From Escherichia coli (GTDB taxonomy: Bacteria; Pseudomonadota; Gammaproteobacteria; Enterobacterales; Enterobacteriaceae), in the NCBI RefSeq assembly GCF_024298765.1, contig NZ_CP101217.1: DNA of 3,174 nucleotides. One strand, written 5' to 3'. A program made the translations under genes and the position numbers. The notes beneath the pieces were generated by a model that did no database searches, was not told the DNA's origin, and was given only the letters and a program-made list of their open reading frames with translations. Below, one piece after another: positions 380 through 3,174 of the stretch; within the stretch, counting starts at the first letter, position 1, and each line of letters opens with the position of its first letter.

Positions 380-775
380 TTAATGATGATCTGGGCTTGT
401 TTCAAGATCGAGCCTGATTGCCTTAAGTTTCTGTAATATATTGTCTTTTGGGTATCTCAGTTCGCCTGTTTTTGTGTCCACTAGTCCGGCCTCGATCAGT
501 AACCCCGCCGCAAGAAACAGGCGGTGATTGCGTTCCCGTCGTTGTGTTTTCCCCTCCATCCGTTTTTGGTTGGCCTGTTTGCGTGCGTTCTCCTGTGCCT
601 GTAGCTCGTTTTTTTCTGCGGTTGCCAGGACGTGGAGTAGTTTGCGCTCCTGTTCTGTTAGTCCGGCTTCGTTATCGAGCAGGTCAATGATCTGCCTCTG
701 TCGTGCGGTCTGTTCTCCGAGCTTCCTGATAAAGCCGATTCGTTTCTTCAACCAGTCGATGTTGCTGATGCGCAT
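380..775 (-). CDS. mobC: MobC-like relaxosome accessory protein (131 aa)
   Basis: Minus-strand ORF, ATG at 775-773, stop TAA (complement of 380-382). AGGGAG Shine-Dalgarno on the minus strand about 10 nt upstream of the ATG. Divergent from the relaxase gene across the oriT region, as in IncQ mobC-oriT-mobA. The motif KTQRRERNHRLFLAAGLLIEAGL resembles the RSF1010 MobC motif as recalled (ERKNETRRKVLVGAMILAKV). The six-frame track extends the ORF to a GTG at 895 (171 aa), which would run through the oriT palindrome; the ATG at 775 with its RBS is preferred. Confidence 0.7.
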   Translation of the reverse strand: MRISNIDWLKKRIGFIRKLGEQTARQRQIIDLLDNEAGLTEQERKLLHVLATAEKNELQAQENARKQANQKRMEGKTQRRERNHRLFLAAGLLIEAGLVDTKTGELRYPKDNILQKLKAIRLDLETSPDHH

Positions 776-799: not shown

Positions 800-850
800 T
801 TGCGGTGTGTTGGGGTTGTGCAGTATATCGCTTGCGGTGGGTGGGTGCAG
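800..850. repeat. GT-rich direct repeats TTGCGGTG-N-GTGCAG (two copies) in the mobC-mobA intergenic region
   Basis: TTGCGGTG at 800-807 and 832-839, each followed by GTGCAG (818-823 and 845-850), 32-bp period. The plus strand here is strongly G+T skewed. Lies between the mobC start (775) and oriT. Confidence 0.4.
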
Positions 851-882
851 GGGGGTATCTTCCGTGCTAATTCGTAAAATTA

Positions 883-940
883 GCAGGAAGCGCACTTATA
901 TGTTTCTTCGCCGTTGGCTCAGAAACATGTGCGCTCCTGC
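883..940. other. oriT: origin of transfer (oriT), MOBQ/RSF1010-like, with candidate nic sites
   Basis: Inner inverted repeat ATGTTTCT (900-907) / AGAAACAT (921-928), with GCC/GGC pairing inside the spacer; compare RSF1010 arms CCAGTTTCTC/GAGAAACCGG (recalled). Outer imperfect inverted repeat GCAGGAAGCGCAC (883-895) / GTGCGCTCCTGC (929-940). Minus strand reads AGAAACAT-ATAAGTGCG|CTTCC (plus coordinates 898-886), matching the RSF1010 nic core TAAGTGCG|CCCT 8 of 8. Plus strand reads AGAAACAT-GTGCG|CTCCTGC (929-940), a shorter match. An additional small hairpin TGCTAATT/AATTAGCA lies at 865-885. Confidence 0.7.
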
Positions 941-954
941 GGAGGGCTAACACC

Positions 955-1908
955 GTGGCAACCTATCACCTCAATGTAAAATTTGGCGGCAAGGGACAGG
1001 CCGGAAACCATGCCGATTACATCGAACGCAAAGGCGAGTACGAGAAACGAAAAGATCTGGAATACTCAGAGCACGGGAATATGCCAGGCTGGGCGCGAGA
1101 TAATCCCTCCCATTTCTGGCAAGCGGCTGATCAGTTTGAACGTGCGAATGGTTCGACTTATCGGGAGATCGAAATCGCCTTGCCGCGTGAACTGACACCG
1201 GATCAGCGCATTGAACTGGTGCAGGATTTTGTGCGTCAGGTAGCTGGAGAACGGCACGCCTATAGCTTTGCCATTCACAATCCAAAAGCGAGCATTGACG
1301 GAGGGGAACAGCCTCATGCGCATATCATGATGAGCCAGCGTATTAACGATGGTATGGAACGTTCGCCGGAACAGTATTTCCGGCGTTATAACGCCAAGAA
1401 TCCCGAACGGGGAGGCGCAAAAAAAGATTCAGGCAATCTGACACCGACTCAGCAAAAAGAGCAATTGCGGACGTTACGGGCGAGCTGGTCAGCGTTACAG
1501 AACGAGCATTTAGCGCGTCATGGTCACAGGGTGCGCGTTGACCATCGCTCACTGGAAGAACGCGGAATTAAACGCACGCCAGAACGGCATTTCGGATTTG
1601 CCGCCTCATCACGGCTTGATCATGCGCAGCGCCGCGAAATCCTGCAAAACCGAGCGCAGCCGCTCGAACATTTTCTAGAGAAAGCGCATTCGGTTCGCCA
1701 TCAATTTGATGCACAAGTTCAGCAAAAAGAGTTAGTTAAAACGCTTTTACAGGACGTCGCACGGGAGCGAGGGCACGCGCTTACGGCAAGAATAAATAAA
1801 ACAGGTGAAGTTGAATTTGAACGTGCGCCAACGCGGACGCGGAGTAACACGCGAGGGCACGGCATGGGCATTCGTGACAACTCACGCGGGTACGACTACG
1901 AACGTTAA
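955..1908 (+). CDS. mobA: MobA relaxase, MOBQ family (317 aa, relaxase domain only)
   Basis: GTG start at 955 preceded by GGAGGG (941-946, 8-nt spacer); stop TAA 1906-1908. N-terminus MATYHLNVKF...HADYIERKGEY parallels RSF1010 MobA MAIYHL...ADYIQREGKY (recalled). Conserved motifs: ADYI (candidate catalytic Tyr22), REIEIALP, the His cluster H108...PH121AH123IMMSQRIND (candidate metal-binding triad), RYNAKNPERGGAKK, and VDHRSLEERGIKR. Confidence 0.9.
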   Translation: MATYHLNVKFGGKGQAGNHADYIERKGEYEKRKDLEYSEHGNMPGWARDNPSHFWQAADQFERANGSTYREIEIALPRELTPDQRIELVQDFVRQVAGERHAYSFAIHNPKASIDGGEQPHAHIMMSQRINDGMERSPEQYFRRYNAKNPERGGAKKDSGNLTPTQQKEQLRTLRASWSALQNEHLARHGHRVRVDHRSLEERGIKRTPERHFGFAASSRLDHAQRREILQNRAQPLEHFLEKAHSVRHQFDAQVQQKELVKTLLQDVARERGHALTARINKTGEVEFERAPTRTRSNTRGHGMGIRDNSRGYDYER

Positions 1909-1919
1909 AAGGGGACTGT

Positions 1920-2450
1920 ATGGCGAGTACAGAAGAGGGGTTGCTCACGCTCTTGTTGTCCGTTGAGCATTTGAAAAACACTGCGATAGAACAACAGAAA
2001 GCGGTTGCAGACACGCTGGCGGTCGCAAGGGAAACACTGCGGGGGTATCGGGATATTTCTGACAGTGTTGTAAAACAGGTTAGCGATGAAGTCAGAAAAG
2101 GGGTACAGAAAACGGACATTGCGGGGCTGATGGGTGAGCGCATGACCCAGGATTTTCAGCGTCTTGAAGAGACTGTGGCAAAGATGAGAGCCAACGCGGA
2201 GGCGCTTAACAAGGACATTGCGACAATTCATCACAATGTTGTTAAAGAATACAACACGCTCAATAAATACAGTCTGAAATGGTTTATCGGTGTTACGGTC
2301 AGTTTTCTGGTCATGTTCTCGTTGCTTGGCTGGTTTACCAAAACGTTGATCGACAGGAACTACACCGCGACGGAGGTCGTGTATCAGAAAATTGTTGATA
2401 TTGAAAAGAAACTGGACAAACCAGCAACAGGGAAGAGCCGGAAAAACTGA
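1920..2450 (+). CDS. mobilization-associated membrane protein, possibly MobB-like (176 aa; coiled-coil N-terminus, single C-terminal TM helix)
   Basis: ATG at 1920 lies 11 nt after the mobA stop, with AGGGGA RBS-like sequence at 1908-1913 (GGGGA centred about 8 nt upstream), implying operon coupling. Residues ~1-118 are charged and heptad-like (E/K/Q/A-rich). Hydrophobic segment WFIGVTVSFLVMFSLLGWF (aa 121-139, nt 2280-2336) is followed by a short basic tail. The antisense 200-aa ORF (1905-2507) has junk-like composition. Functional assignment is by position and by analogy with the membrane-associated MobB of IncQ plasmids, not by recognised sequence identity. Confidence 0.7.
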   Translation: MASTEEGLLTLLLSVEHLKNTAIEQQKAVADTLAVARETLRGYRDISDSVVKQVSDEVRKGVQKTDIAGLMGERMTQDFQRLEETVAKMRANAEALNKDIATIHHNVVKEYNTLNKYSLKWFIGVTVSFLVMFSLLGWFTKTLIDRNYTATEVVYQKIVDIEKKLDKPATGKSRKN

Positions 2451-2475
2451 CGCGCTTCGCTTGTCCAACGCCTCA

Positions 2476-2502
2476 CGGGACGCGAAAAAATTCCGCGTCC
2501 CG
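2476..2502 (+). terminator. candidate hairpin terminator downstream of the mobA operon
   Basis: 9-bp GC-rich stem CGGGACGCG (2476-2484) / CGCGTCCCG (2494-2502) with a 9-nt A-rich loop, 26 nt after the ORF stop. The downstream T-tract is interrupted (TTCACCGTTTTCT), so intrinsic-terminator assignment is weak; it could instead be a structured single-strand site. Confidence 0.35.
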
Positions 2503-2703
2503 TTCACCGTTTTCTGATGAGAAAGTTTGCCGTTTTGACCCGTTCGGTGCTCAGATTTGGCGAAATTGATTCCGAATCACTTTTGTGAATAGTTATGCAA
2601 GCCCCTGGAAACGTTTCTGACGCGTTTTTTGAGGTAGGGGTGGGGGAAAGCATGGTTTTTTGATGTTTTGAGCGTAAAAGCGTGAAAAATCGCGTTATTG
2701 TGC

Positions 2704-2732
2704 TTGCGATCTTTCGTCAGGGAGCGTAGAAC
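2704..2732 (+). promoter_or_regulatory. candidate sigma70 promoter for a plus-strand primer-like transcript (RNAII analogue)
   Basis: TTGCGA (2704-2709), 17-nt spacer, TAGAAC (2727-2732). It sits immediately upstream of an A-run plus hairpin (2734-2757), similar to how the ColE1 RNAII 5' end overlaps the RNAI terminator. Hexamers are only 4 of 6 matches to consensus. Confidence 0.2.
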
Positions 2733-2733
2733 G

Positions 2734-2757
2734 AAAAAAGCCCGCCGTTAGGCGAGC
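2734..2757 (-). terminator. rho-independent terminator, minus strand
   Basis: Minus-strand RNA would read GCUCGCC-UAAC-GGCGGGC followed by UUUUUU. 7-bp stem with one G-U wobble, which is a C-A mismatch in the plus-strand transcript, so the structure is strand-specific. The U6 tract corresponds to plus A2734-2739. Confidence 0.5.
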
Positions 2758-2860
2758 TTCTTCGGGTTCATTGAGGTTTTCGACCTCCTCAATGTTCCTG
2801 TGGAGTCTGTTGCGGCGACAACGGAAACCAGTTCATTCAGTTTGCATGAACCTTCTGTAT
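2734..2860 (-). ncRNA. candidate antisense regulatory RNA (RNAI-like), boundaries approximate
   Basis: Upstream of the minus-strand terminator (on that strand) are two more hairpins: CATTGAGG/CCTCAATG (2769-2794, 8-bp stem) and GTTCAT/ATGAAC (2831-2851, 6-bp stem). Three stem-loops ending in a terminator within ~120 nt resembles ColE1-type RNAI architecture. No confident promoter found; the 5' end is not defined. Overlapping ORFs in this region look non-coding. Confidence 0.25.
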
Positions 2861-3174
2861 TCTTCAAGCATTACCGACCGCACAGCCTCCCCAGAATCCC
2901 GAAAAAATCCTGTTTTTGCAGATGATTGCGTGTTTGCAAAGACCGTTTGCGGTTGGGGGAGCTGTGACGACGGCAACCGCACGCGTGAGAGTTCCGCTAC
3001 CGGCGCAGAGAGTTTCATCGACAGCGGACACCTGATGAGTTGCCACAAAAACCGTATGTAGCGCGGCTAGATTGGTTGAGTTAGACCTTGGCGGCAGTTC
3101 CCGGTATGTGGTGGCGTGACGGGTGAGATGGTGCGGCGAAGACGCATACGTCACGCAGGCGCGGGTTCTTCCAC

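Follow-up and report, generated by a model that had tools for sequence, protein, structure and literature searches.

The window analysed here is the complete circular plasmid pLHC5-1-3k of 3174 base pairs (bp), which PLSDB types as MOBQ and mobilizable. Between a mobC-like gene and the divergent relaxase gene mobA it carries a segment (865-946) which by its sequence is a predicted origin of transfer (oriT) of a small mobilizable plasmid, of the RSF1010/pSC101/MOBQ4 type (Table 1). The oriT itself is ordinary and of a known type; the value of following it up lies in a putative outer helix which surrounds the relaxase-recognition hairpin, ends at the nick and co-varies throughout the family of related oriTs.

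The oriT palindrome and its predicted nick

The inner hairpin with its nearly complementary outer arms, as proposed by a reading made from the sequence only, proved to be real. Hairpin 1 is homologous to the RSF1010 inverted repeat GTTTCTC-GAA-GAGAAAC and, when GCC/GGC near the loop is included, has arms of 13 nucleotides (nt) with 85% complementarity. The outer arms (883-895 and 929-940) are complementary except for one extra A on the left and contain a perfect 7-bp block (889-895 with 929-935), so that the outer helix of the window has 12 bp with one bulged A and is longer than in most relatives. With a slash at the nick, or at the position mirroring it, the sequence is AGAAACAT-ATAAGTGCG/CTTCC on the minus strand and AGAAACAT-GTGCG/CTCCTGC on the plus strand, exactly as had been claimed. 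Folded as single-stranded DNA, 883-940 forms a long interrupted hairpin on both strands, at -20.7 kcal/mol for the minus and -20.3 kcal/mol for the plus strand, against an average of about -7 for shuffled sequences (z of -6.1 and -7.2, none of 200 shuffles folding as well); z values ranged from -5.6 to -7.2 over the tests on both strands. The hexamer GTGCGC alone is not rare, with 4 copies in the window and 3.3 expected, and the plus-strand copy gains its weight solely from where it lies and from being kept in relatives.

Table 1. Features of the oriT region and of the mobilization genes in pLHC5-1-3k (aa, amino acids; ORF, open reading frame)
Feature	Position	Strand	Description
mobC-like accessory gene	380..775	minus	131 aa from ATG at 775; transcription directed away from mobA
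Putative mobA promoter	832..861	plus	TTGCGG (832-837), 18-nt spacer, TATCTT (856-861); from manual reading and conservation
Hairpin 0	865..885		TGCTAATT pairs with AATTAGCA; 8-bp stem, 5-nt loop; in minimum-energy folds
Left outer arm	883..895		GCAGGAAGCGCAC; CGCAC (891-895) complements the nick-core pentamer and G890 the +1 C
RSF1010-type nick region	890..907	minus	AGAAAC-ATA-TAAGTGCG/C on the predicted transferred strand
Hairpin 1	900..928		ATGTTTCT (900-907) pairs with AGAAACAT (921-928); predicted relaxase-recognition inverted repeat
Right outer arm	929..940		GTGCGCTCCTGC; GTGCG (929-933) is the mirrored nick-core pentamer; read as a pairing arm
Hairpin 3	934..946	plus	CTCC (934-937) pairs with GGAG (941-944); overlaps the mobA Shine-Dalgarno GGAGGG (941-946)
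mobA, MOBQ relaxase	955..1908	plus	317 aa, GTG start; ATG at the same position in relatives
mobX-like ORF	1920..2450	plus	176 aa; hydrophobic segment near the C-terminus

A single copy of the composite motif AGAAAC-N3-TAAGTGCGC, against 0.01 expected, is present in the plasmid, at 890-907 of the minus strand. The eight-of-eight match that had been claimed between the minus-strand core and the IncQ core was borne out by the actual RSF1010 sequence, as TAAGTGCG is identical to it at 8/8 positions (RSF1010-type plasmid; oligonucleotide table of PMC4814116). The mapped nick sequence of RSF1010 is CAGTTTCTCGAAGAGAAACCGGTAAGTGCG/CCCTCCC (PMC4814116), and the MOBQ nick consensus is given as NWACCNNTAAGTGCGCCCTYNN (PMC3832669). 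On the 3' side of the nick the window has CTTCC and RSF1010 has CCCTCC, the three bases after +1 being TTC against CCT. The spacing of 9 nt to the nick, against 8 in RSF1010, holds when it is counted from the stem but disappears when it is counted from the conserved GAGAAAC, from which the spacing is identical in both (N3 plus TAAGTGCG).

The orientation of RSF1010 was taken from an IncQ1 plasmid (L014), with its mobA set on the plus strand and its MobA presumed identical to that of RSF1010. In this orientation the RSF1010-type oriT reads GGGGAGGGCGCACTTACCGGTTTCTCTTCGAGAAAC (the stretch in L014 being GTAGGGGAGGGCGCACTTACCGGTTTCTCTTCGAGAAACTGGCC), and therefore the mapped nick strand is antisense to mobA and the nick lies on the mobC side, with the inverted repeat on the mobA side of it. 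The minus-strand candidate of the window corresponds to RSF1010 in motif, spacing, strand (antisense to mobA), side (mobC-proximal) and the presence of a hairpin downstream at 3'. That hairpin, hairpin 0, immediately follows the predicted nick in the 3' direction of the transferred strand, and a hairpin occurs at the same place in RSF1010 (CCCTAC-AAA-GTAGGG) and in loci L008 and L012. The segment thus has the inverted repeat, the spacer of about 8 nt and the core TAAGTGCG/C of an RSF1010-type MOBQ oriT, and it is flanked, as in that type, by mobA and a divergent mobC-like gene, the strand predicted to be nicked running antisense to mobA. On the strength of the match to RSF1010 in sequence, spacing, strand and side, we predict the nick between G891 and C890 of the minus strand, the strand favoured by the sequence-only reading, and it is in our view the single credible candidate; most likely one strand is nicked, as in RSF1010. 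This gives a strand-specific nick prediction for a very common class of small enterobacterial mobilizable plasmids, whose oriT was previously delimited only to about 178 bp.

On its mobA side the palindrome ends close to the translation start. The plus-strand copy had been said to overlap the mobA ribosome-binding site; the right arm (929-940) in fact abuts GGAGGG (941-946), and it is hairpin 3, pairing 934-937 with 941-944, that includes part of the site. Autoregulation by the relaxase through this adjacent ribosome-binding site is possible. A hairpin of variable sequence also lies directly past the right copy in relatives, and the arrangement GCGCTC-N3-GAGGGC of this region is found in RSF1010 too. 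From the end of the right arm the distance is 1 nt to the Shine-Dalgarno and 14 nt to the start codon; the tight packing of oriT arm, Shine-Dalgarno and start may be related to the strong cis preference of MOBQ4 relaxases (PMC6856555).

The mirrored pentamer across related oriTs

We compared the window with the oriT regions of PLSDB relatives and of 80 loci encoding MobA relatives in species-representative genomes. GTTTCT...AGAAAC was found upstream of mobA in 95 loci, which gave 49 distinct flank combinations. Read in the mobA sense, their common layout is G and five bases, TTA(G/T)NN, GTTTCT...AGAAAC, 0-2 nt and a final pentamer that mirrors, as its reverse complement, the pentamer after the G. 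The match is perfect (5/5 at an offset of 0-2) in 36 of the 49 distinct oriTs. When the bases of the right flank were shuffled, perfect matches averaged 1.3 and never exceeded 6 in 2000 trials; with right flanks drawn from loci of a different core they averaged 5.7 and reached 14 at most. In both null models the right copy was placed by best match, as it was for the real sequences. A MAFFT alignment of the trimmed oriTs left the right copies out of register because the spacer ranges over 0-2 nt.

The sequence of the core changes among lineages and changes on both sides together. It is GTGCG on both sides in enterics, GCGCG in Pseudomonas, Azotobacter, Comamonas, Xenorhabdus and others, GCGTG in Psychrobacter and Shewanella, CCGTG in one Psychrobacter and GTGGG in a Neisseria gonorrhoeae plasmid. 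In a registered alignment of the outer helix, changes on both sides occur at 3 of the 6 pairs and the pairing is destroyed by sliding the pair partners; changes on both sides affect 20 cells, a number that none of 500 shuffles reached (mean 6.1). In this count the best-match register favours structure, and the null did not repeat that rule. Among the 45 oriTs whose pentamer is perfect, the outer helix stops at the nick in 20 and in none runs past it by more than 2 bp; its one-sided bulge measures 4-6 nt. By this comparison the plus-strand pentamer is shown to be a conserved, co-varying partner in the predicted pairing with the nick core.

The mirrored core had been taken as unusual because classical IncQ oriTs are not symmetric across the nick, a view that the comparison does not support. 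Beyond the 36 perfect cases the mirrored arrangement is present in pSC101, pSK41-type and pTi-type oriTs, and RSF1010 itself has GTGCGC in the mobA sense, about 28 nt beyond the inverted repeat and behind a second hairpin, whereas the copy of the window abuts the repeat. The minimum-energy fold of RSF1010 has a three-way junction in which this displaced GTGCGC pairs with the nick core. An Aeromonas IncQ1 relative likewise has GTGCGC about 28 nt away behind a second hairpin. Around the displaced copy, GTGCGCTCTCCGAGGGC is read in the mobA sense at 640-661 of L014 and in L022, about 28 nt past the repeat, and resembles GTGCGCTCCTGCGGAGGGC at 929-947 of the window. The mirrored core is therefore not a peculiarity of one plasmid, as it recurs in RSF1010-like, pSC101-like, MOBQ4, Neisseria, Psychrobacter, Pseudomonas, pSK41-type and Ti-type oriTs.

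The oriT of pSC101, a classical one that has been used in experiments, is mirrored as in the window, GCGCAC-TTAGAC-TTTCT...AGAAAC-GTGCGC, with an outer arm of 6 bp instead of 12 bp with a bulge. The Nes oriT of pSK41/pLW1043 (MOBQ; structure 4HT4) and a TraA oriT of a Ti plasmid (MOBQ2) share with the window a hairpin, an A-rich spacer and (T/G)TGCG/CCC, and differ from it in their hairpin sequences and accessory proteins. In both, 4-5 nt on the 5' side of the hairpin complement the bases immediately ahead of the nick (GCAC/GTGC and CGCAA/TTGCG). The flank is kept while the hairpin sequence differs in pSK41 and two staphylococcal oriTs (L104-L106), which read GCAC-hairpin-ATAA-GTGC-G/CC. Among the Ti-type set (L107-L109) the Ti-plasmid oriT reads CGCAA-GG-hairpin-TATAA-TTGCG/CCC, and the complement is weaker in the two other relatives, L108 (4 bp) and L109 (about 3 bp).

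Several loci depart from the common layout. In a large Acinetobacter group (L018, L047-L060 and similar) the whole CTAAGCGCG is mirrored as CTAAGCACG, so that the spacer is paired too; the sole mismatch in these loci is a G-T wobble on the transferred strand only, and their mobA lies some 260 nt further downstream, beyond a small annotated ORF. The copy of the Acinetobacter group has a mismatch (GCACG vs GCGCG), in Acinetobacter oriTs of the L036/L037 type the feature is absent or degraded, and L021, a conjugative Acinetobacter plasmid, has no mirrored copy. In a Xenorhabdus yunnanensis contig (L078) the left core is now GTGCGT, with the right copy still GCGCG and a predicted nick core of ACGCA; the five pairs are all Watson-Crick or G-T on the mobA-sense strand only. 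Either this oriT is decaying, or the locus hints that folding takes place on the sense strand.

No description of the outer helix was found in the literature searched, a search which the key R1162 and pSC101 papers lay outside. The palindrome is not described in the MOBQ4 study, whose supplements carry no nick annotation and whose oriT sub-fragments 1-70 and 71-178 are numbered without a given direction (PMC6856555).

Possible function of the outer helix

As hairpin 1 followed by GTGCG/C is presented on both strands, MobA could in principle nick either strand and start transfer in either direction, a bidirectional capacity that the sequence-only reading had entertained. A pentamer tracking the nick core is also what would be expected if one relaxase recognised both copies, and in loci L006 and L015 the plus-strand copy GTGCGCCCT equals RSF1010 across the nick. 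The two copies are, however, constrained differently. TAA lies 5' of the pentamer at the true site in 48 of 49 oriTs and at the mirrored copy in 0 of the 36 perfect cases, while the +1 base is C at the true site in 49/49 and variable at the copy (C 18, G 10, T 6, A 2). The true site lies 6 nt from AGAAAC and the copy 0-2 nt, and RSF1010 MobA contacts the base of the hairpin and requires an 8-nt single-stranded spacer (PMC4814116). The copy is moreover displaced by about 28 nt in RSF1010 and mismatched in the Acinetobacter group. In the window the plus strand offers GTGCG(C) only, with no TAA and a 2-nt spacer instead of 6, and a second complete recognition sequence comprising hairpin, spacer and full core was not found on that strand. 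With TAA missing, the +1 base variable and the spacing wrong, bidirectional nicking is unlikely and a second nick is probably not made at the plus-strand GTGCG; that MobA uses both strands appears to us improbable in the extreme. R6K, which reportedly has two functional oriTs, is a precedent for nick regions of opposite orientation on one plasmid, but the second copy of the window is merely a 5-nt complement. The cruciform-prone palindrome, offered by the sequence-only reading as its fallback, fits the evidence better than nicking in both directions.

We consider it likely that the minus strand is nicked once and that the mirrored GTGCG, complementary to the five nucleotides just before the nick, belongs as its far arm to an extended, interrupted inverted repeat with a role at the DNA level. 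MobA would recognise hairpin 1 (900-928) together with single-stranded ATAAGTGCG on the minus strand and, by homology, make one cut at G891/C890, after which the mobC side would be transferred first and mobA with the hairpin last, as in RSF1010. Either strand, when folded, would form hairpin 1, a one-sided bulge of 4-6 nt (...TAA on the transferred strand) and an outer helix of 5-7 bp, with the nick at the end of this helix or 1-2 bp inside it. The outer helix would most likely act as a DNA structure. The longer interrupted palindrome should extrude from supercoiled DNA more readily than the 8-bp hairpin alone. Once it is extruded, the complement of the nick core would be held in the hairpin of the retained strand, which may leave the nick region free for MobA. 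Alternatively, the outer helix may keep the transferred strand's 3' end in place until it is re-joined.

Several points weigh against this single-nick, DNA-level reading. The nick site is a prediction from homology, and the MOBQ4 study gives no nick position either (PMC6856555). RSF1010 MobA cuts a single-stranded oligonucleotide, WQ(30+7), that lacks the 5' flank complement (PMC4814116), and therefore the outer arm is dispensable for cleavage in vitro and auxiliary at most. A paired outer helix would also bury the nick core that an HUH relaxase needs single-stranded, and its role could be inhibitory. The wobble-orientation test of the outer stem was tied with 3 cases per strand, and that of hairpin 1, with 5 cases for the minus strand against 1 for the plus strand, is only suggestive. 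Apart from the register rule behind the 20-cell count, the sequences compared are phylogenetically related and the independent events are few, with about five or six core types, and the feature is absent or degraded in L021, L078, L109 and the Acinetobacter oriTs of the L036/L037 type.

The strongest rival, though in our judgement an unlikely one, places the palindrome in the mobA leader, where a stem-loop would control the stability or translation of the mRNA. If the promoter at 832-861 is real, the whole palindrome lies within that leader; its hexamers (TTGCGG-18-TATCTT) lie upstream of the nick and equivalent ones are found in divergent relatives, being the same in L006 and L015 with a different spacer sequence. 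The putative promoter matches 8 of 12 positions, and a promoter and terminator scan did not report it, returning nothing upstream of mobA. An RNA-level role would also accord with the position of the Shine-Dalgarno GGAG in hairpin 3, with three outer-stem mismatches that are G-T wobbles in the mobA sense (two in L078, one in L085) and with the cis preference of MOBQ4 relaxases (PMC6856555), which fits a coupling of mobA expression to oriT. Yet the complement is kept in the staphylococcal L105 and L106, where no gene is annotated within 90 nt, and where the mobA start lies 50-260 nt further downstream, while the mismatches of L018, L036 and L096 wobble only on the transferred strand. The helix is furthermore tied to the nick, ending there or within 2 bp of it, which a role in RNA leaves unexplained.

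Two other explanations dispense with a folded strand or with function altogether. The arms could be a symmetric operator in double-stranded DNA, with GCGCAC/GTGCGC half-sites for a dimeric protein, for instance a MobC-like one, that bends or represses the oriT-promoter region. Inverted half-sites do flank the relaxase hairpin between divergent genes, and the mob promoters of RSF1010 overlap oriT and are autoregulated. The distance between the half-sites varies widely, however (loops of 3-30 nt and a shift of about 28 nt in RSF1010), so that an operator of fixed spacing was set aside; the specificity of the accessory protein would need to shift with the nick core in at least five lineages, and staphylococcal and Ti-type oriTs have the same complement with unrelated accessory proteins. 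These points make an operator very improbable. The complementarity could also be a by-product without function, in which quasi-palindrome template switching keeps the arms complementary in the absence of selection. Imperfect palindromes are known to undergo templated correction, a mutational process that would mimic compensatory change, and the pairing beyond the pentamer is variable (0-2 bp, longer in the window). The TAA bulge nevertheless remains unpaired in most lineages instead of being corrected, and the arm persists in Gamma-, Beta- and Alphaproteobacteria and in Bacillota while flanks and loop diverge completely, and in RSF1010 despite the inserted hairpin that separates it from the repeat; we regard a mere by-product as quite unlikely. 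Were it one, the finding would be ordinary. If the outer helix is functional, the MOBQ model, in which a hairpin is followed by 8 nt and the nick, would gain a structural element made of DNA, and the prediction of oriTs could improve.

In MOBQ4 plasmids the 178-bp mobC-mobA interval is a functional oriT and MobC is not essential, and deletion of mobC in R1162/RSF1010 caused a drastic loss of transfer in earlier work cited by the same study (PMC6856555). MobC is thus dispensable where the arm abuts the hairpin (MOBQ4), and its deletion is reportedly costly where the arm is displaced (R1162/RSF1010), a pattern that is suggestive only.

A further proposal, which we hold as doubtful, is that the pentamer 5' of the hairpin serves MOBQ oriTs in general as a clamp or guide that acts in cis as DNA, and pairs with the last five nucleotides before the nick on the transferred strand. 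The nick would then lie at the end of a short helix, which might help a Y1 relaxase to find or hold the 3' end when transfer terminates and the strand is re-joined, or might gate access to the nick. In IS608, of the IS200/IS605 family, a guide sequence at the foot of the hairpin is said to interact and co-vary with the bases of the cleavage site on the same strand, and the transposase TnpA is, like MobA, a single-tyrosine HUH enzyme. The resemblance is in layout only, as the IS608 interaction is non-canonical and needed for cleavage, whereas the flank is dispensable in vitro for RSF1010 MobA. A clamp or guide would bear on how Y1 relaxases end a round of transfer and on the monomeric and dimeric models for it (PMC4176350).

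The mobilization module and its relatives

The relaxase that would act on this oriT matches the Pfam family MobA_MobL (PF03389, E 1.1e-36) and the structure 2NS6 of the minimal MobA relaxase domain of R1162/RSF1010 (E 4e-41). Alignment with eight relatives shows its catalytic tyrosine and histidine triad (Y22, H108, H121 and H123) to be invariant. The 131-aa product of the mobC-like gene gave no match in a scan of NCBIfam, and it is 39% identical (E 3e-13) to the product of a TraD-annotated gene adjoining the oriT of pSC101; the gene is placed as mobC is in RSF1010 and in MOBQ4 plasmids (PMC6856555). The mobX-like ORF shows a weak similarity to MobX of pSC101 (27% identity, E 2e-4, in a single pairwise comparison), and both have the same position after mobA. 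By the resemblances of accessory protein, MobX-like ORF and relaxase, the module of mobC-like gene, oriT, mobA and mobX-like gene is pSC101/MOBQ4-like.

Its relations to the known systems are graded. With RSF1010/R1162 (IncQ1, MOBQ1) the window shares GTTTCT...AGAAAC, N3-TAAGTGCG/C, the strand and side of the nick, the 3' hairpin and a homologous relaxase; its hairpin loop has 13 nt against 3 nt in RSF1010, and its 317-aa relaxase is without the primase fusion of RSF1010. With pSC101 it shares the order of the genes (mobA, mobX and a divergent traD/mobC-like gene), and the relaxase domains are about 65% identical as judged from the close relatives of pSC101 (L016, L025-L035), while the replicon is different. 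The MOBQ4 plasmids pIGWZ12, ColE9-J and pE2022_4 resemble it as small enterobacterial plasmids with divergent mobC and mobA and an intergenic oriT of 178 bp, against a mobC-mobA interval of 179 bp in the window; they differ in having a Rep_3 or ColE2-type rep gene and a MobC of <100 aa, as against 131 aa here (PMC6856555). Col156-type (ColE2-like) plasmids and small rep_cluster_2131 plasmids have oriTs 88-91% identical to that of the window and relaxase domains about 79% identical.

The replication functions of the plasmid are less conspicuous. Its PLSDB record has two annotated coding sequences and no replicon type assigned, and no Rep_3 or ColE2-like rep gene (the MOBQ41/MOBQ42 replicons) is present among the ORFs of the 3174-bp window. 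An Rfam scan of the whole plasmid gave no RNAI, no leader RNA and no other match. The remaining sequence (2451-3174 and 1-379) contains no recognisable rep gene, though the plasmid belongs to a common family of about 3.1 kb whose hosts are Escherichia, Salmonella, Shigella and Klebsiella. The mob module (209-2629) is also found at 98% identity on 3.9-kb plasmids with an annotated replication initiation protein, and therefore it moves between replicons. Some 6.5-kb records appear to hold the mob module more than once. Near-identical plasmids measure 3171-3175 bp, which may reflect slippage at a run of 13 A (168-180).

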